In this document: positions 45,598 to 53,632 of the stretch, one piece after another | How positions within the stretch are numbered: the first letter of the stretch is position 1 | How the letters are laid out: every line of letters begins with the position of its first letter | UHGV virus genome: UHGV-0084588 | From: a virus | Direction: 5' to 3' (one strand) | DNA length: 64,000 bases | The notes under the pieces: generated by a model | The model's database searches: none | The model's input: the letters and a program-made list of their open reading frames with translations, nothing else | Told to the model about the DNA's origin: nothing | Program-made: the position numbers and the translations under genes

Positions 45598-45807
45598 TTA
45601 GTCTTTTTTGTAGACAATCGCGTTACCGTGCAGTTTGTTGTTGCCGGAAATACCGATAACTTTGAATGCGTCGCCGCCAATTTTTTCGGCTTCAGCAGCC
45701 AGTTTACCAGTTACATGATCAACGGTATCGCCGAAAGCGCTGACGTTACCGATTTTCTTAAACTCTTCTGGAATATGCTCAGCAGAAGAGAACTCTTTAA
45801 TAGACAT
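45598..45807 (-). CDS. DUF1471 (BhsA/McbA/YdgH-like) domain protein lacking a signal peptide
   Basis: Start at the ATG at 45807 (GGAGAG RBS); C-terminal ...GDAFKVIGISGNNKLHGNAIVYKKD parallels the BhsA C-terminus (...SFRITSVTGPNTLHGTAVIYK) as recalled. Confidence 0.55.
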   Translation of the reverse strand: MSIKEFSSAEHIPEEFKKIGNVSAFGDTVDHVTGKLAAEAEKIGGDAFKVIGISGNNKLHGNAIVYKKD

Positions 45808-46013
45808 AACAGCTCTCCATTTCAAAAGGTTAGTGGTCTAAGACCGACGTGTGTTACAACCGAAGCATAAGATAGCTCCTCCCCGTAGGGAGGAGTAGAG
45901 TGCGCGAAAAAAGTGGCCTGCTTAACTAAACGATGGGTTTAAGAAAAGTGTTGATAAAAAGTTTTACCAACGTCAGGTCACAATATATAAAAACAACGTA
46001 AGAAAAAGGGGAA

Positions 46014-46979
46014 TTATTGCGGAGGTGATGTCGGGCCATGTTTACCTTGGTGAATGTGAACGCTAAAGGTAATACCAGAAATAACGGCATCTTTAACCGT
46101 AAAGACACCGACGCCTTTGCCAGTACCGCCGTATTTGAAGTTCTTAGCGATTTCCAGATTACCGGTGAACATCGCTTCATTCCCTTCTTGTTTAAAGTTC
46201 GGCGTTTTAAATGTTGTCGAACTCCCTGCTTCCGTTAACCAGGTTTGTGTTTTAAACGTAACGGATTTCGCTGCTTCCGTATTGCGAACTTCGCATTTTT
46301 CATTAATTGTTTTCGTTTCCAGGTTAATAGAACGCTTTGAATAAATGAACGCATCTTCTTTGTTGATGTTCACTTTTGAAAGCATCGCATTCTCAAAACC
46401 TAAATCGTCTTCCACCGAGTTAATGTAATACTTATTCCCTTTGTGGTCAACACACTGCCACGTGCCATTTGCATTATCAAACTGAAATAACCACGCCGCT
46501 TTCTCGCCGTTCACCATACTTGTTCTTAGCGTGATATGTTTGTCAATCGTCGAGATATTCAACACATACGCATTGGACAGGTCATCCGCCATCTGGTTTT
46601 CAGGGTCAGCAGACCACGCGTAAACCGCATCCTCTAATCGCTTAACGTTAGCGAAGTTCAGATCAATCCAAAAATAAATATCGGTTTTCCCCAAACGTAA
46701 CAAGATAACGTAATCTTCTCGTTTAACGTCAGGGGAATTAATTCGGTTGGAGTTAAACTTCCACCACTTTGCTGTTATCGTGTTACCCGTCTTAATGGTT
46801 AGGTTATCTGTTGCACCAGACGTTTCATGCGTCTTTTCAGTTGCTGAAGAAACAGATTGCACCACGGTAGGGTTAGCAAAGTTGGTTTCAATTGGTATCA
46901 CTTTTACCCGATCTGTACCACGGGGTTTGTCTTCCGCGACGATACCAATTGAGAAAAAATCAACACTGGATTTCTCCAT
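46014..46979 (-). CDS. possible baseplate central spike protein (gpV/gp138-like)
   Basis: 321 aa; N-terminal GIVAEDKPRGTDRVKVIPIE resembles the OB-fold start of spike proteins; C-terminal SVHIHQGKHG His cluster as at spike tips. Confidence 0.4.
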   Translation of the reverse strand: MEKSSVDFFSIGIVAEDKPRGTDRVKVIPIETNFANPTVVQSVSSATEKTHETSGATDNLTIKTGNTITAKWWKFNSNRINSPDVKREDYVILLRLGKTDIYFWIDLNFANVKRLEDAVYAWSADPENQMADDLSNAYVLNISTIDKHITLRTSMVNGEKAAWLFQFDNANGTWQCVDHKGNKYYINSVEDDLGFENAMLSKVNINKEDAFIYSKRSINLETKTINEKCEVRNTEAAKSVTFKTQTWLTEAGSSTTFKTPNFKQEGNEAMFTGNLEIAKNFKYGGTGKGVGVFTVKDAVISGITFSVHIHQGKHGPTSPPQ

Positions 46980-47007
46980 CGGGACGTTCCTTAGATCGGA
47001 ATTGAAT

Positions 47008-47033
47008 TCAGATATATATTACTTAAGTGAATA
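47008..47033 (+). promoter_or_regulatory. conserved 26-bp promoter-like motif (copy 3) with downstream hairpin
   Basis: TCAGATATATATTACTTAAGTGAATA followed by an 11-bp stem (TAGGGACTGAA/TTCAGTCCCTA); unlike the other copies it lies about 390 nt upstream of the next ATG. Confidence 0.45.
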
Positions 47034-47398
47034 GGGACTGAAGTACCAGTTCAGTCCCTACGGACACGTTTCATTCGAAACGGATTGATTAAACCATTTG
47101 GGGAGACAGATCATGTCTACTAAAAAAAGAAAGTCTCAATGAGCTGCTCAAACGTCTTAAAGACTACACTCCATTTAGTACCTTCCGATAACAGGTACTA
47201 AAATTTTACAGTCTGCCCCTTTATTCTGCTACTCGGGATACCGGTAGGGGGTAGGGGGCATTATGTATACGGATATAAATAGCGGAGGTATACGTAGTAT
47301 ACCGACATACTCTTCCCAGAGGAACGTAGTGACTTCCTTATTCCTCTTCTGCAATCCATAATAATAGACTCCCCTTTATTGAGATTAGCGAGTAAATC

Positions 47399-48136
47399 AT
47401 GAGAGAATTATTAGACGATATCTTTACTAACACCAGTTTAGAACTTTCTTCTACCGTTGTTAACGAACTATTAAAACAATCGCAACCTGCTAAGTTAATC
47501 GATGCTGGAACAATTAAACCTGAAGATTATCCAGACAGTGACGTTATCGACTGTATGATTGACGAATACGTGATAGGCAGTTACGCCAACCGCGTCTTCT
47601 TCGTTATTAATACCGAAACCAGTGTCATGTTAATCTATAAGTTGATCAGTGATGCCGAACTTGAAGTTGTGGCTGACCACATTCGTCTTCTTGCGAACAC
47701 GCCTACTAGTATCGATGATGTGCTTATTGGGAACGGTTGGGCTTTACCACCACTATTCTCTTACTTCCCTCTGTTTAGAAATGGGATAGGGTTACTCCGA
47801 AATGCAGAAAAGCTTCCCGATAACGTCGAGTTATCACTGCTTGGACCCGGCATCGATCTTTGTCCATTAGAAGACGAGGGCACGCTATATGGTTTGCGCA
47901 TCTATGTTTCTGTGTTAAAGGGTTACCGCGTTATTGAACTGATTGCATCCGACTTAGCAAAACAGATCCCAGATGTGGAAACGATTTCTAAAGCCACCCA
48001 CCTGGTTGAGATTAACTCAGACGATCCCTTATTGAAATATCACGAGAAAATTGATCTTCGTAAAATCGCCACGATGAGAGGGTGGAGTTGTGCTGAGATT
48101 ACGAAGGACTATCTGCTGTTAATTAAAACCGCGTAA
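47399..48136 (+). CDS. hypothetical protein (paralog array member 1)
   Basis: 245 aa; C-terminal ...RGWSCAEITKDYLLLIKTA is related to the GW...QLLF.AD ends of the next three genes. Confidence 0.55.
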   Translation: MRELLDDIFTNTSLELSSTVVNELLKQSQPAKLIDAGTIKPEDYPDSDVIDCMIDEYVIGSYANRVFFVINTETSVMLIYKLISDAELEVVADHIRLLANTPTSIDDVLIGNGWALPPLFSYFPLFRNGIGLLRNAEKLPDNVELSLLGPGIDLCPLEDEGTLYGLRIYVSVLKGYRVIELIASDLAKQIPDVETISKATHLVEINSDDPLLKYHEKIDLRKIATMRGWSCAEITKDYLLLIKTA

Positions 48137-48166
48137 TTAAGAAAACCGAAAAAAGGAGAATATACC

Positions 48167-48721
48167 ATGTTTCAAACTGAACTGAAAAATGAAATTATCC
48201 AAACCCTTGAAAAAGGCGTAGGCGAACATTTCTTTGTCCGTCCTTATACCGTACTGACCAATACCATTATCCAGCCAGGTGCGATGATAGTAGGGGTAAG
48301 TGTACAAGCTGTAGAGGAAGCCCCGCTGCGTCGTAACATCACACGTAAAAACCATATTCCATTTAGAACGGGTTTTACAAATTACTTTCAGAGCTTACTG
48401 AAAGATAGCGTTTGGAAAACAGGCAGCTTCTTCCACGAAGGGAAGACTTCCACGCTGGTTTATAAAGAGAACACCAAGTATCTGGTTGATTTTCTCTTAG
48501 CGCGTCAATACGATTTCTTTCCTTCACCCACCGGTCTCACCCCAGACAATCCGAGTAAGCTGTTAAACCAAGACGAAGCTGAAGCACTGCGTGCACAACT
48601 GAGAAAAGAAGGTTGTGATGTCGATGACCATGAAACCTTAATCGGGGTTGCTAAAGCACACGGTTGGTATACCGTGCGTGTATTTGGGCGTCAGATGTTG
48701 TTCTTAGCTTATAACGTTTAA
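48167..48721 (+). CDS. hypothetical protein (paralog array member 2)
   Basis: 184 aa; AAAAGGAGAATATACC-ATG; C-terminal AHGWYTVRVFGRQMLFLAYNV. Confidence 0.6.
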   Translation: MFQTELKNEIIQTLEKGVGEHFFVRPYTVLTNTIIQPGAMIVGVSVQAVEEAPLRRNITRKNHIPFRTGFTNYFQSLLKDSVWKTGSFFHEGKTSTLVYKENTKYLVDFLLARQYDFFPSPTGLTPDNPSKLLNQDEAEALRAQLRKEGCDVDDHETLIGVAKAHGWYTVRVFGRQMLFLAYNV

Positions 48722-48732
48722 AGGATGGTATC

Positions 48733-49860
48733 ATGCATATCTGTCATAACGCACCGTCGCACAAACTTTATCTTGAATTGCTTTTCGAGGACTACAAGAA
48801 AGGGGTGCCGAAAATATTACTTAGCATCCCGCCTGATACGCAAACTGAATTGTTCGGTCGCGTTTTTGGTTGTACCGTTAACGCTTTGCCAGAACCAATC
48901 TGTGCGCCTGTGGATAATTGTGTTTTCGACGAACGAATTGAGGATTTTCAATTCACCTTTTACGTAAACGATTCTTTACTGTACGATAAACTCTATGTTC
49001 GTGAGTTGAAATCAAATCAGCGGTTAATGTACCGCGTCTATCCGCCCCACAGAGGGTCGATACTAGAGTATAAAATCAGACGGCTACCTTACGAGGGTGT
49101 GAATTTACTCGACCAGCAGGATATGGCTTTTCTGGAAGAACTCTGTGGATTTGAAATTGAGAAGATTCACGTAACCCAGGAAATATCCCGAAACGTACCT
49201 AGTCGTCATACCCCTTACGGTGGGTTTCCGTACGAGTTCACCGACACAGGACTAAGGCTCGTAACCGAATTTAACGACGTAATGTATTACGCAGTGTGTA
49301 TTGAACGTAAAGTAGTGGAGAAAGAAATGACAAGTACATTGAAAGAAGAATTAGCCCAATTCATTCGTGATGTTGAAGAGAAAAGCAAGAGCGATCACAT
49401 TTTCTCACAACGTTATCCTGAACTTATTGACGAAACCACCGATAGTGTCGTCGATGGTATACGCATTTTCCCAAGTGGTCTTGCAATTTACCGACTGCCT
49501 AGTGTTAATCAGCTTAAAGTCATGGAAATGCTAAAAGACGTTTTAGCAGAAGCAGGTTGGGAATATCGTTTCGATTGCAATTTCGAAGGGATGGCGTTAT
49601 TCGTTACAAAGAAAAATTATACGTTGTCAATCGATCTGCCCAAAAGTCAATATTACAGTTTCTTCCCGAAAGCGGATGACCGCACTGAAAAAGAACCTGC
49701 GATGTTACTTGATGCGGCAGAGTCCAATACGCTAATGATACATCTGCGGACGATTGATAAAGAGTTAACTACCAGTCATTTAACGACGATCGGTAAAGAT
49801 TACGGTTGGAAATCTGTCGAACCGTATGGCAGTCAGCTACTGTTTGTTGCTGACCTCTAA
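48733..49860 (+). CDS. hypothetical protein (paralog array member 3)
   Basis: 375 aa; C-terminal DYGWKSVEPYGSQLLFVADL. Confidence 0.6.
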   Translation: MHICHNAPSHKLYLELLFEDYKKGVPKILLSIPPDTQTELFGRVFGCTVNALPEPICAPVDNCVFDERIEDFQFTFYVNDSLLYDKLYVRELKSNQRLMYRVYPPHRGSILEYKIRRLPYEGVNLLDQQDMAFLEELCGFEIEKIHVTQEISRNVPSRHTPYGGFPYEFTDTGLRLVTEFNDVMYYAVCIERKVVEKEMTSTLKEELAQFIRDVEEKSKSDHIFSQRYPELIDETTDSVVDGIRIFPSGLAIYRLPSVNQLKVMEMLKDVLAEAGWEYRFDCNFEGMALFVTKKNYTLSIDLPKSQYYSFFPKADDRTEKEPAMLLDAAESNTLMIHLRTIDKELTTSHLTTIGKDYGWKSVEPYGSQLLFVADL

Positions 49861-49886
49861 TAAGTGAAACTACACTTTCTCTAACT

Positions 49887-49910
49887 GCCGCGCTTTAGTC
49901 GCGGCTTTTG
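49887..49910 (+). terminator. weak hairpin terminator
   Basis: GCCGCG-cttta-gtCGCGGC followed by TTTTGTT. Confidence 0.4.
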
Positions 49911-49928
49911 TTAAGAAGGAAAAAAGAA

Positions 49929-50708
49929 ATGAAAATCCATTTAGACGACCTCTTTAAAACTGAACCGTACATGGTTAAAGGTTCGCTGGCTTCATTGTTG
50001 CTAGACGATAGATACCATCGAACGCTACAATTACAATCGGTAGAAACCGCGCCAACGGGAATTGAAGACGTGGGTCTTTACCAACGTATCACTCACACAC
50101 GTGGAGAATATCGTCGATATAAACCCGATACACTGACCGTTAAGCTTTGGCAAGTGGGCACAGGCAAGGTATTAAGTTATCGCGCCGTTGGTCTGTACCA
50201 CGTTGAACGTGCTTACACATGGTTAGAAGAAGTTAAAGAAATGGATTACGACCAGCTAAGCAAAAGACTTCGTGACCATAACGCCAGTTTACCGTTACGT
50301 AATTATTTCTCCACAGTTGAAAATAGTCGTTGTTTCGTTTCTCGCGAATCCATGATATTACCTGGAACTGACGTTCAGACGACGCTAAAAGACGTGGTTG
50401 TAAAGAAAGTCTTTCATGAGTCTGAACACGTTGGGTTTCGTATCTATTTAACCCACAAGAGACCATTTACCGTGATTCATGTTGTTACCGTACCCGAAGG
50501 ATCAGCAGTCTCTCGGGAACTTCCTGATGCTCGCGACCGTTGCCCTAATGAGCCGCTCTACTTAATGTCAGGAACAAAATCAACCGCGTTGATGTCTCGT
50601 TACAGCATGATAGATGTTGTTGACGCTGCTATGAAGCTAGGTTGGAAAGAAGTGCAGCAACACGGTAAACAGTTGCTGTTTATTGCCGATGTAAAACTTA
50701 ATTATTAG
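49929..50708 (+). CDS. hypothetical protein (paralog array member 4)
   Basis: Start at the ATG at 49929 (AAGGA RBS); C-terminal KLGWKEVQQHGKQLLFIADV. Confidence 0.55.
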   Translation: MKIHLDDLFKTEPYMVKGSLASLLLDDRYHRTLQLQSVETAPTGIEDVGLYQRITHTRGEYRRYKPDTLTVKLWQVGTGKVLSYRAVGLYHVERAYTWLEEVKEMDYDQLSKRLRDHNASLPLRNYFSTVENSRCFVSRESMILPGTDVQTTLKDVVVKKVFHESEHVGFRIYLTHKRPFTVIHVVTVPEGSAVSRELPDARDRCPNEPLYLMSGTKSTALMSRYSMIDVVDAAMKLGWKEVQQHGKQLLFIADVKLNY

Positions 50709-50720
50709 TGAGGTGGAACC

Positions 50721-51299
50721 GTGTACCGATTAATAGAAATGCGAAAAGACGTTTGGTTGGAAAATCTCGTCGATGGGGAGCTTGAGGGAGTTGGGCTTTC
50801 CTTACCAGAAAGGGCGGACACGGTATTAGCCTTTCTGATAAAGCGGGCAGCGAATGAACCTGTGGGGATTTTCGACGTGGATTACAAAGAACCGCGCGGA
50901 ATTCGTTTACGTAACATCTGTTGTGGTTTAGAGAACTTGACGGCAAGTCCTTTCGTAAACTACGCAAAACGTAAACTCCAGCCAGGGCAACATCTCTGGG
51001 TAGTTCTAGCGCCAGATATTCGCATTATGCGAGACGACCTGACTGCGTTTGTGCAAGCAACGAAAGTCAGTTTGTACAATCCTAATGCGGAACGTACCGA
51101 TATGCCGTTTACAATCACCTTAGAAGACGATGGAACGCAAGAGGGCATTGAGGCGATTACGGAATTAGTAAACTCTTATCCGGTTGCATCTATCGAGTTA
51201 GAAAACCCAAACCGATTACCGTTGGGGGATTTACTCGAATGGATTGAGCTGAATACTGAGTTCCTCATTAACTCCCGACAATATCGGTTCGATGTATAA
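50721..51299 (+). CDS. hypothetical protein
   Basis: 192-aa ORF with GTG start (GAGGTGG RBS). Confidence 0.5.
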   Translation: MYRLIEMRKDVWLENLVDGELEGVGLSLPERADTVLAFLIKRAANEPVGIFDVDYKEPRGIRLRNICCGLENLTASPFVNYAKRKLQPGQHLWVVLAPDIRIMRDDLTAFVQATKVSLYNPNAERTDMPFTITLEDDGTQEGIEAITELVNSYPVASIELENPNRLPLGDLLEWIELNTEFLINSRQYRFDV

Positions 51300-51303
51300 C
51301 GTC

Positions 51304-51336
51304 GGTGGGGGTAAACCCCCACCTTTTATTTTTTGT
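51304..51336 (+). terminator. rho-independent terminator
   Basis: GGTGGGGG-taaa-CCCCCACC followed by TTTTATTTTTTG. Confidence 0.8.
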
Positions 51337-51357
51337 TCGTCAACATTAAAAATAATT

Positions 51358-51383
51358 TCAGATATATATTACTTAGGTGAGAG
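51358..51383 (+). promoter_or_regulatory. conserved 26-bp promoter-like motif (copy 4) with downstream hairpin
   Basis: TCAGATATATATTACTTAGGTGAGAG followed by GAGTTA-tgat-TAACTC; 72 nt upstream of the ATG at 51430. Confidence 0.5.
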
Positions 51384-51429
51384 TTATGATTAACTCATTT
51401 ATACATTAACGCCTTAAAGGAGCAAAACA

Positions 51430-51891
51430 ATGAAATTTTTTACTTCCTTTTTAACCATCCTCTTAACGCTGGGTCTCAATACTGCACACGCAGCAATCAA
51501 TAGCTGGGAACAAATCCAGTCTCCAGACCAAGCCATCTACGAAATCGAAGACACTGAAGGCAACAGCCTCTCTATCAATTGCAGTACAGAAACCGCCAAT
51601 CGTAAATTTTACGGGCACAATGTTTGGTATTACGGAGAACCTGCAGGGGCAACAAACGCTGAGGATAACGCGCTCGATATTGTCGTAAATGGTAAAAAAT
51701 ACCGTATCCCTACCATCGACGGTAGCGACCGTTCAGAACAAGCCTGGGCGGATTTCATTAAAGCGGTCGGTGGGGCAAACCATTTTAGCTTGCTTATTAA
51801 CGATAACGTGGCAGCAGGGTTTACCGTAGAAGGCGAACGCCTTAACGAAACGTTTTTCCAGAACTGTGGACACAGCCGTCCTAACAAATAA
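51430..51891 (+). CDS. secreted protein (signal peptide)
   Basis: MKFFTSFLTILLTLGLNTAHA-AINSW is a typical Sec signal peptide with an AHA cleavage site; AAAGGAG RBS. Confidence 0.65.
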   Translation: MKFFTSFLTILLTLGLNTAHAAINSWEQIQSPDQAIYEIEDTEGNSLSINCSTETANRKFYGHNVWYYGEPAGATNAEDNALDIVVNGKKYRIPTIDGSDRSEQAWADFIKAVGGANHFSLLINDNVAAGFTVEGERLNETFFQNCGHSRPNK

Positions 51892-51919
51892 ATATTAATC
51901 TTTTTTAGAGTGCGTGAAA

Positions 51920-52306
51920 ATGAATATCAGAACTATACTTTATACTATCATTATTTTCTGTGCGGTCGGAATTACTGGCACTTATGCTTTCGGTGATTCG
52001 GATGTCCGCTATTACGAACCGGCTCCTGACTCACCCATTATCAACCCGGATGAGTCCCCTACGTTAATGCGCAGTTTCGGTAAACTGCAAGTTTATCGTT
52101 TAGTGCGTGGTGAAACGTGTACGGGATTACTCATTGCTGACACCCGTGCACAAGTCTACCAACGTCTAACCGATATTGCTTGCGAACAACCGAAAGTAAT
52201 GTCAGTTAGTATCCATCCGCTATCAGTTGGTAACTATACCGCTGTGGACTTCTTTCATAACGCCGAATTAATTGGCCGTGTTACTTTAAATCGTCCTGCT
52301 GAATAA
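51920..52306 (+). CDS. secreted/membrane-anchored small protein
   Basis: MNIRTILYTIIIFCAVGITGTYAFG N-terminal hydrophobic segment; an alternative GTG start exists at 51914. Confidence 0.5.
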   Translation: MNIRTILYTIIIFCAVGITGTYAFGDSDVRYYEPAPDSPIINPDESPTLMRSFGKLQVYRLVRGETCTGLLIADTRAQVYQRLTDIACEQPKVMSVSIHPLSVGNYTAVDFFHNAELIGRVTLNRPAE

Positions 52307-52324
52307 TCTAAAGGAGTAGTTGCA

Positions 52325-52810
52325 ATGAAACGTTTACATACGCTGATGTTCTTTCTGGTTTTCTTGTTTATCGGTGCCACACCAACTGTAGATGCGGCCT
52401 CCGTAGACGAATTACTTACCTGTGATGGAAACGCTTGGGAAGGTCAGCCAAATGCGTGCCCGAACATCAACGACTTGTACGATACCGATAAGTCATTTAA
52501 AGCTGTTGTTGATAAAACACTAGACCCGGTGGGACTGGATGGTATGTTCGGCTCTAAAGGTTACATGGATGGTCCTGGCGGTAACATGTATCCGGTAAAC
52601 ATCAACAACAAAATCTGGATTGAAAGTGGTGGTTGTAAAGCTAATGCTTGTGGCTGGGAATACATCGTAACGCTATACAACCCACACACCAAGAAACTCG
52701 TCGGTTATTACTACAACATCGACCCCGGTTATCTGATTTGGTTCGGTGATATCGGTGTTGCTGAATTCGCTTACCTGGTTAAGAAATACGCGGAACAATC
52801 TAAATACTAA
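52325..52810 (+). CDS. secreted protein (signal peptide)
   Basis: MKRLHTLMFFLVFLFIGATPTVDA-ASV; AAGGAG RBS; several Cys in the mature part. Confidence 0.65.
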   Translation: MKRLHTLMFFLVFLFIGATPTVDAASVDELLTCDGNAWEGQPNACPNINDLYDTDKSFKAVVDKTLDPVGLDGMFGSKGYMDGPGGNMYPVNINNKIWIESGGCKANACGWEYIVTLYNPHTKKLVGYYYNIDPGYLIWFGDIGVAEFAYLVKKYAEQSKY

Positions 52811-52821
52811 GGACTTTTATC

Positions 52822-53232
52822 ATGAAAACTATCATCAACACTCTTCTCATTGCAATTGCTATTCTGTTCTCTGTTAACGTATCAGCAAAAACAATACAGT
52901 TGCCAGACGGTATTAAGTACGTCAATAGCACCGACGATTTCTACTGTACGGAAATTGACGGTCTGTACTGCCAGGCGAAGAACCTGTTTAAATACAAAGG
53001 TAGCAGATACGTGTTCATCGTTGAGCAAGGTGGTGCCTGGTGCTACGACAGCCCAATGTCTGTACTCAACCTCGAAACGTGGAAGGCACAACGTCTTGAA
53101 TACAACGACAAACATTTGTGCTCAGGCAACAACAAACCATTCTTCAAAGTCGTAGATGGTGTACCGATGGTAGGGATATTAGACACTTCGGAAAAACCTA
53201 TCGTTGTAGCTATGGATAAACTTAAAATTTAA
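52822..53232 (+). CDS. secreted protein (signal peptide)
   Basis: MKTIINTLLIAIAILFSVNVSA-KTIQ; Cys-containing mature part. Confidence 0.65.
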   Translation: MKTIINTLLIAIAILFSVNVSAKTIQLPDGIKYVNSTDDFYCTEIDGLYCQAKNLFKYKGSRYVFIVEQGGAWCYDSPMSVLNLETWKAQRLEYNDKHLCSGNNKPFFKVVDGVPMVGILDTSEKPIVVAMDKLKI

Positions 53233-53242
53233 GGAGTAACTC

Positions 53243-53632
53243 ATGCGTCTCATCTGCGCTTTAGCATTCTTCTTCTCCCTGGGTGTAGCGGCATCTACTC
53301 AAGTTAACGATTTACTGCTAACCCCAAACAACAATACCGATTACCAGTACAATCCTCCGGGGTTTGAAGTTTGTGAAGTCGGTGAAACAATCTGCCAAGA
53401 AGTCGGCGCAGACGGGCGCTATATTCTGGTAAAAGCTGATGGTGGCACAATGTGTCCCGCAGGTTATTACTTTCTTCTCGATTCCGTTGCAAGAGAGGTT
53501 CTTCCTATCACCACGAAAACGTGCGACCCTACTGTTGTCTTAACTCTCGCTAAAAGCAAATCTCGCGACCGTTATCTGATCGTTATCGAAGAACGGGGCA
53601 AGATGGCTGGCGCTATCGAATTAGATCATTGA
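53243..53632 (+). CDS. secreted protein (signal peptide)
   Basis: MRLICALAFFFSLGVAAS-TQV; AAGGAG RBS; followed by a terminator. Confidence 0.65.
   Translation: MRLICALAFFFSLGVAASTQVNDLLLTPNNNTDYQYNPPGFEVCEVGETICQEVGADGRYILVKADGGTMCPAGYYFLLDSVAREVLPITTKTCDPTVVLTLAKSKSRDRYLIVIEERGKMAGAIELDH

Follow-up and report, generated by a model that had tools for sequence, protein, structure and literature searches.

A recombining array of four paralogous genes with a shared C-terminal domain in a chimallivirus genome

RESULTS

We analyzed a 64,000-nucleotide (nt) stretch of the virus genome UHGV-0084588 (the window), which belongs to a giant Salmonella/Escherichia coli phage (jumbo phage), and found that positions 47,399 to 50,708 hold four tandem paralogs, W245, W184, W375, and W259. 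Together with the following gene, W192, they make up a locus of five same-direction genes on the plus strand (Table 1). The results support an old, genus-specific fourfold expansion of a gene family that is accessory, nonvirion, and probably early and that exchanges alleles through recombination. An initial annotation of the four genes had described a short shared C-terminal tail behind divergent N-terminal regions and had taken this combination as typical of rapidly evolving host-takeover or anti-defense families. The open reading frames (ORFs) and the C-terminal strings quoted there are present in the DNA exactly as given. The fourth ORF also exists, but not with the 260 amino acids (aa) assigned to it: the start is most likely ATG 49929 (259 aa) and not TTG 49908, the frame start in the ORF list, as the ATG is preceded by the ribosome-binding site AAGGA and the orthologs, of 257 to 259 aa, open with MK[IV][HQ]LD.

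The four genes form a true tandem family in which genes 2 to 4 are strongly related and gene 1 is probably a divergent member (blastp, hhalign, and structure). By blastp, W184 matched W375 with E values of 9e-11 to 2e-9, W375 matched W259 at 6e-10 to 7e-9 across 142 to 182 aa, and W184 matched W259 at 7e-4 to 2e-3. Ortholog alignments compared with hhalign gave 2.3e-11 for W184 (residues 6 to 181) against W375 (203 to 373) over 167 columns, 4.5e-10 for W375 against W259, and 2.7e-5 for W184 against W259; the proposed C-terminal similarity is significant in formal alignment for these three genes (profile-profile E values of 2e-11 to 3e-5). All three also matched a hidden Markov model (HMM) of the shared module at E values of 1e-21 to 1e-24.

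The likeness had been called weaker in the first gene, and W245 is indeed weak by sequence alone. It was matched to W259 by blastp (2.4e-4) only without composition correction, was not found by the domain HMMs (E of 0.29 in one search, no match in another), and in a first profile comparison reached a P value of just 0.009. A comparison of 83 W245 orthologs with the W259 family by hhalign gave a P value of 2.3e-4 over 161 collinear columns (70 to 243 against 74 to 253), while the P values of 35 control comparisons, of the array families with five unrelated neighboring families, were all at least 0.019. The AlphaFold2 (AF2) model of W245 is confident (predicted local distance difference test [pLDDT], 85.8; predicted template modeling score [pTM], 0.80), and the W245 and W259 models have an equal order of secondary-structure elements, ending in a short helix followed by β-α-α-β-β. 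The top two Foldseek matches of W245 among predicted viral structures were EarlPhillipIV gp170 (356 aa; 5.6e-4) and a 223-aa protein of phiEaH2 (1.1e-2), both of them syntenic family members in Erwinia phages, with template modeling (TM) scores of only ~0.2. Because of the collinear profile match, the matching order of structural elements, and these matches to the family, we regard W245, on balance, as a divergent fourth paralog.

The N-terminal regions, described as divergent, are only partly unrelated, since homology reaches upstream of the domain: it extends between W184 and the C-terminal half of W375 and over ~160 aa between W245 and W259. Neither DNA-level repeats nor gene conversion was found among the paralogs, the promoter motif alone being repeated, and this lack of DNA repeats joining the paralogs shows that the duplications are old.

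The shared C-terminal tail also turned out to be a genuine similarity, but its unit is an α/β domain of ~65 aa rather than a stretch of ~20 aa. The consensus of this module reads [IL]PDxxDR[ST]xN[DE]PxYLMS, a helix, a variable linker, a second helix ending in AxxxGW, and xxVxxxGxQLLF[IV][AS]; architecturally, a loop (PDxxDRxxN[DE]P) precedes a β-α-α-β-β unit that closes with GWxxVxxxGxQLLF. In the W259 model, the module has a pLDDT of >90, with the conserved loop exposed ahead of the β-α-α-β-β unit. In each protein, conservation is highest in the module (pairwise identities averaging 0.72 to 0.92, versus 0.59 to 0.85 elsewhere), where it is concentrated in the N-terminal loop and the β-hairpin; the net charge of the module is neutral to acidic, and its topology is winged-helix-like. 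W375 carries a weak, partial second copy (the helix-hairpin part) at aa ~262 to 290, just upstream of the module proper. A β-sliding-clamp-binding motif (QL[SD]LF or QLxLF, or the hexapeptide QLxLxL, in a flexible terminus) was considered for the QLLF string and rejected: QLLF is one residue short, its spacing is wrong, and it forms the buried last β-strand of a folded domain (pLDDT of >90).

When 1.84 billion cluster representatives were searched exhaustively with a profile, 43 matched at an E value of 1e-3 or better. The module lies 0 to 5 residues from the C terminus in most of them (10 to 23 in four short stand-alone ones) and occurs either alone, in proteins of 72 to 150 aa, or behind 130 to 350 residues of varied sequence. 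A word-indexed search with a 20-sequence module profile yielded further stand-alone members, all short and unannotated, and no domain-fused relatives. Since such stand-alone proteins exist, the module can act on its own, which argues against the simplest reading of it as a mere docking tag; it probably has an activity of its own, in binding or otherwise, and the upstream regions would modulate or redirect that activity.

The C-terminal ends of PHROG families 26772, 33648, 24489, and 18480, all of "unknown function," matched W375 and W259 (E values of 2.7e-9 to 5e-3), and W245 and W184 were not recognized by PHROGs. Because PHROGs divides the family by its variable N termini, the shared domain is not catalogued there as a unit. 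Pfam, NCBIfam, and PADLOC gave no significant match for any of the four array proteins or of three further members of the family, and none to characterized anti-defense or defense families, no dedicated anti-defense HMM library having been used; marginal Pfam matches (SPOR [E value of 0.009], TBPIP wH, and DUF6301), each in one protein and below the cutoff, were discarded. A sequence profile search of the PDB with the module produced zero matches at an E value of ≤10. As a unit, the domain is uncatalogued, with no relative that is solved or annotated.

The gene content of the window fits a chimallivirus of the proposed genus "Bapsvirus," the genomes of which are carried in bacterial assemblies (PMC12768965). 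The genes flanking the array show 76 to 80% protein identity to those of SPN3US (Seoulvirus) and phiEaH2 (Erskinevirus), both nucleus-forming chimalliviruses, and the DNA of the window is absent from the phage collection searched. The close relatives (W259 identity of 79 to 99%) are contigs of ~222 to 227 kb that come either from metagenomes or from assemblies of Salmonella, Shigella, and E. coli. One close relative is a 221,873-bp circular RefSeq "plasmid" in the complete genome of the urinary isolate E. coli 98232 (NZ_CP173450.1); it holds the same four-gene array, annotated as hypothetical, which is consistent with the reported carriage of the genus in bacterial assemblies.

The number of array genes among related phages, a comparison that the initial annotation had proposed, differs between related genera, at one versus four. 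All nine full Bapsvirus-type loci examined have the four paralogs in the same order, and a tenth, a 2.7-kb contig, has the last two, while in Seoulvirus, Erskinevirus, and Derbicusvirus the corresponding site, behind the baseplate gene, holds a single copy. The single-copy orthologs, namely SPN3US gp175 (SPN3US_0175; 412 aa), phiEaH2 AFQ96642 (223 aa), EarlPhillipIV gp170 (356 aa), and the CR5 homolog, have the same module, match paralog 4 by hhalign at E values of 1e-10 to 1e-14, and are all uncharacterized. They lie in the same orientation and at the same site, between the baseplate gene and a gp177-like gene or an SMC block, but as one gene instead of four, and their N termini are unrelated in sequence between genera. 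Family length varies greatly (129 to 412 aa among the cluster representatives), and its members are concentrated in jumbo phages, of which many are chimalliviruses.

Among the other jumbo and large phages with stand-alone proteins are Klebsiella phage FBKp24, Erwinia phage PhiEaH1, and Shewanella phage SXP01, and further examples lie on metagenomic contigs of 16 to 312 kb. The stand-alone proteins share the motif set PDxxDRxxN[DE]P ... GWxxVxxxGxQLLF (profile E values down to 1e-20) but are without the N-terminal extension and have a variable insert between the two helices. Their genes are single, lie within blocks of small genes of unknown function, and have unrelated neighborhoods: beside glutaredoxin and dNK genes, near a Tad2-like gene (anti-Thoeris family; two genes away in one case), or between methyltransferase and Bro-N genes.

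The rapid evolution suspected in the initial annotation was borne out, the locus being fast evolving and mosaic relative to its surroundings by both protein identity and DNA profiles. Protein identity to the relatives was 54 to 99% for W245, 44 to 89% for W184, 42 to 62% for W375, and 79 to 91% for W259, versus 91 to 99% for the flanking structural gene and 88 to 98% for W192, and the combination of array alleles varies from genome to genome. Against the relative L004, DNA identity is 98 to 100% up to ~48400, 43 to 53% over the first half of W375, and again 98% by ~50500. Against L012, with a background of ~80%, it is 41 to 60% at 47275 to 49294 and then 85 to 93%, a jump that indicates a recombination breakpoint inside W375. 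W375 itself is a chimera with its breakpoint near 49290: the first ~185 codons have 41 to 53% DNA identity to every relative examined, and the last ~190 codons are 85 to 93% identical to L012, exceeding the ~80% background. Clustering of W245 at 90% identity gives 84 clusters, among which identity falls as low as 50%. The ratio of nonsynonymous to synonymous substitution rates (dN/dS), taken where synonymous change was unsaturated, was 0.17 to 0.58 for the array in close pairs versus 0.03 to 0.09 for the structural neighbors.

The motif TCAGATATATATTAC[CT]TA[AG]G[TG]GA occurs in four copies in the window (11359, 15267, 47013, and 51363), all on the plus strand, with none expected by chance. 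The copies precede blocks of small genes, and none lies inside the structural block. They span 21 to 26 nt, fit the early promoter consensus of the phiKZ, 201phi2-1, and OBP type, and contain the phiKZ early core TATATTAC. The consensus given for 201phi2-1, OBP, and N1M2 (Table 2 of PMC7058600) is matched by the motif, and such jumbo-phage motifs define early promoters used by the virion RNA polymerase (PMC7598289). By its sequence and its placement upstream of small nonstructural genes, the motif would belong to the early promoter class of the virion RNA polymerase of jumbo phages. In both SPN3US and phiEaH2, the single family gene is immediately preceded by degenerate versions of the motif. 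Since a motif of this type precedes the array, we infer that the array is transcribed early. The copy at 51329 to 51396 (the motif itself, at 51360 to 51380, comes after the terminator) is the sole part of a query spanning 46000 to 52000 with a DNA match to SPN3US-like phages, where it recurs at several intergenic sites per genome. A scan for sigma-70 promoters returned sites no more numerous than in shuffled sequence.

The single-copy ortholog gp175 of SPN3US has homologs in phiEaH2 and CR5 only and was not flagged as structural (PMC5105663). In the mass-spectrometric list of 83 SPN3US virion proteins (Table S4), gp173 is followed by gp193, gp175 being absent along with all of gp174 to gp192 (PMC5105663). 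The protein is hypothetical even in records that flag its neighbors as virion structural proteins. The early promoter motif, taken together with this absence from SPN3US virions, fits an early, nonstructural role.

Table 1. Coordinates of the array genes and of the predicted signals around them in the window
Feature	Position	Strand	Remarks
Early (virion RNA polymerase-type) promoter motif AGATATATATTACTTAAGTGA	47010..47030	+	~370 nt before the first array gene
Leader-start hairpin GGGACTGAAGTACCAGTTCAGTCCC	47034..47058	+	Read from the sequence; start of the predicted leader
Tiny leader ORF	47113..47142	+	9 aa here, 25 aa in relatives; ribosome-binding site GGAGA
Ultraconserved noncoding element GGGGGTAGGGGG ... 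GCGGAGG-hairpin-CCGACAT	47205..47353	+	~150 nt, in the leader
Paralog 1 (W245)	47399..48136	+	245 aa; probable divergent member; C-terminal module at ~47948-48133
Paralog 2 (W184)	48167..48721	+	184 aa; homolog, over its whole length, of the C-terminal half of W375; module at ~48521-48718
Paralog 3 (W375)	48733..49860	+	375 aa; most variable gene; breakpoint near 49290; module at ~49660-49857
GC-rich hairpin, then TTTTG	49887..49905	+	Located between W375 and W259; may act as a weak internal terminator or as a processing site
Paralog 4 (W259)	49929..50708	+	259 aa; nearest to the single-copy gene of related genera; module at ~50508-50705
W192	50721..51299	+	192 aa; ortholog of SPN3US gp177; PHROG 20879 (unknown function); last gene before the terminator
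Strong intrinsic-terminator-like hairpin GGTGGGGGTAAACCCCCACC plus T-run	51304..51333	+	Follows W192; predicted operon end

The predicted leader between the promoter motif and W245 holds three features. Most of the stem of the leader-start hairpin is kept in the relatives; a change at one stem position is mirrored on both arms in L004 (GGGGCTGAA...TTCAGCCCC), and a one-sided mismatch is found in L007 and in L012 to L014. A six-locus alignment of the tiny ORF showed two 25-aa alleles, conserved as protein and divergent as DNA: L004 encodes MSTKKESLNELHKRLKDYTPFSTFR and L012 to L014 encode MSTEKKSGLDEVIELFKRYNPAIPR, each after GGAGA. An extra A in an A-run cuts this ORF to 9 aa in the window and in one relative, a truncation that may reflect true polymorphism, a slippery run, or an error in sequencing.

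The third feature, the noncoding element, is nearly invariant in six loci (few single-base differences), where the adjacent genes have 44 to 54% protein identity. Its hairpin part reads GCGGAGG-GGTATACGTAGTATACC-GACAT. SPN3US and phiEaH2 have homologous elements ahead of the first plus-strand gene that follows their baseplate gene, and the hairpin of these elements carries compensatory changes (GGTATCC..GGATACC and GGTGAC..GTCACC). The predicted fold is modestly better than that of shuffled sequence (z score of -2.1), Rfam gave no match in 46900 to 51500, and blastn of the leader against 50,697 phage records found none. The element may serve as a promoter, an operator, or a leader RNA.

By sequence and profile comparison, W192 is unrelated to the four array genes, and the array genes showed no relationship to the SPN3US neighbors missing here (gp174, gp176, gp178, and gp179). 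Directly downstream, at 51430 to 53632 and behind an early promoter motif of their own, are genes for five small proteins with signal-peptide-like N termini (153 aa [YfjT-like], 130, 161, 136, and 129 aa); in relatives, some of these proteins are paralogs. The 153-aa protein is variable (74% identity to a relative whose flanks are 98 to 99% identical), and some relatives insert an extra 123-aa gene before it. Among the tail and baseplate genes, a 69-aa YdgH/BhsA-like (DUF1471) gene at 45598 to 45807 on the minus strand is kept in SPN3US and in all the relatives examined; this family is typical of enterobacterial stress and biofilm proteins.

DISCUSSION

The four genes would represent an old, lineage-specific expansion of one accessory gene located just after the baseplate gene. 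In the model that we propose, the virion-packaged RNA polymerase would start at the motif upstream of the leader and produce a single early mRNA of ~4.3 kb, comprising the structured leader, the four paralogs, and the 192-aa gene, and ending at the terminator. The products would be soluble nonvirion proteins of a common β-rich architecture, each ending in the ~65-aa α/β domain, in which the exposed conserved loop would be packed against the β-α-α-β-β unit with its GWxxVxxxGxQLLF hairpin. The family would act early at the phage-host or phage-phage interface, in host takeover, counter-defense, or exclusion. The conserved module would give a common activity or contact, able to act alone in other phages, and the variable upstream regions would tune target specificity, with recombination among cocirculating phages shuffling the alleles as cassettes.

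The role that we consider most likely for the array genes, with roughly even chances of being correct, is action at the phage-host or phage-phage interface, because the accessory, nonvirion, probably early, and recombining profile is that expected of such genes. No homology or fold match bearing on function came from the family libraries, the PDB profile search, or the structure searches. DNA mimicry as a common signature was considered and discarded, since charge and pI, the latter ranging from 4.5 to 8.9 among the four proteins, are heterogeneous and uninformative. Several observations weigh against a role at this interface. Gene order and number are stable within the genus, and the array is not rapidly expanding or contracting now. 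The dN/dS values are raised yet below 1, so that much of the diversity could stem from relaxed constraint together with recombination. Early expression rests on a motif ~370 nt upstream, with a highly conserved element in between; the charges of the proteins are mixed; and the proximity of one stand-alone homolog to a Tad2-like gene is a single anecdote.

A specifically anti-defense function is rather doubtful, the Tad2-like neighbor of that one homolog being the only direct hint. About as doubtful, in our estimate, is a bolder version of the model, according to which the module would be an autonomous and hitherto unrecognized domain, widespread in jumbo phages, that hits one conserved host component. 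The four genes would then form an early counter-defense or takeover battery whose variable β-rich bodies each neutralize a different strain-variable host system, with whole or partial alleles swapped as cassettes, and the ~150-nt leader element would be a new cis-regulatory RNA or DNA signal that controls the early operon in at least three genera.

Among the alternatives, a phage-internal early role survives best, and we consider it unlikely. The proteins would build or service the early compartment or the phage nucleus, or chaperone early proteins, and their diversity would reflect coevolution with variable phage partners or weak constraint. The enrichment of the family in jumbo phages, many of them chimalliviruses, agrees with this, as do the early promoter motif, dN/dS values below 1, and the fixed gene order and number within the genus. 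Against it, the copy number differs fourfold between genera with the same core biology, the stand-alone members lie on contigs of quite different content (helix-turn-helix [HTH], DNA methyltransferase, and Bro-N genes; a 22-kb contig), and allele exchange at 42 to 54% identity among ~98% identical genomes sits badly with tight coevolution.

We think it more improbable that the proteins are nucleic-acid-binding regulators, acting in the early-to-middle switch, in translation, or on host transcription through a small winged-helix-, R3H-, or Smr-like module. The structural matches are all at noise level for a 60-residue α/β unit, the top ones being methyltransferase substructures, and the module shows neither a significant superposition on a winged-helix domain nor a basic recognition helix: the helix at the "recognition" position is hydrophobic or acidic (MIDVVDAAMK; LDDIRHVAKQQ). 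The conservation in the N-terminal loop and β-hairpin and the neutral to acidic charge of the module also speak against such regulators, and core regulators would not usually exist as four hypervariable copies that recombine.

That the proteins are virion components, either baseplate or tail accessories or proteins ejected with the DNA, duplicated like the structural paralogs of SPN3US-type phages, is very improbable and, for SPN3US, largely refuted: the array does adjoin the baseplate and tail gene block, and large families of structural paralogs are a known trait of SPN3US-like phages (PMC5105663), but the array lies on the strand opposite the structural block, behind the early promoter motif, and gp175 was neither detected in SPN3US virions nor named as structural beside its flagged neighbors.

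The locus presents a bounded set of candidates, i.e., four predicted-early, nonvirion genes that are the main diversity hotspot of a 10-kb region otherwise conserved at 91 to 99%. Chimalliviruses shield their DNA in a protein nucleus, and the first minutes of infection depend on early proteins of almost wholly unknown function. Hundreds of clinical Salmonella, E. coli, and Shigella assemblies contain members of the proposed Bapsvirus group, and if the allele type tracks the host strain or its defense repertoire, the array would be a host range determinant relevant to the therapeutic use of phages. As Pfam does not contain the domain and no relative of it has been solved, defining it would annotate dozens of orphan proteins in other jumbo phages. 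Should the genes prove dispensable, the locus would be one more fast-evolving cluster of orphan ORFs (ORFans).

Hypervariable clusters of early ORFans or anti-defense genes are a familiar general class in phages. The family described here showed no similarity to characterized anti-defense proteins in Pfam, NCBIfam, or PADLOC, but it is like such clusters in its early signals, its small ORFans, its shuffling of alleles through recombination among nearly identical genomes, and its differences in copy number among relatives.

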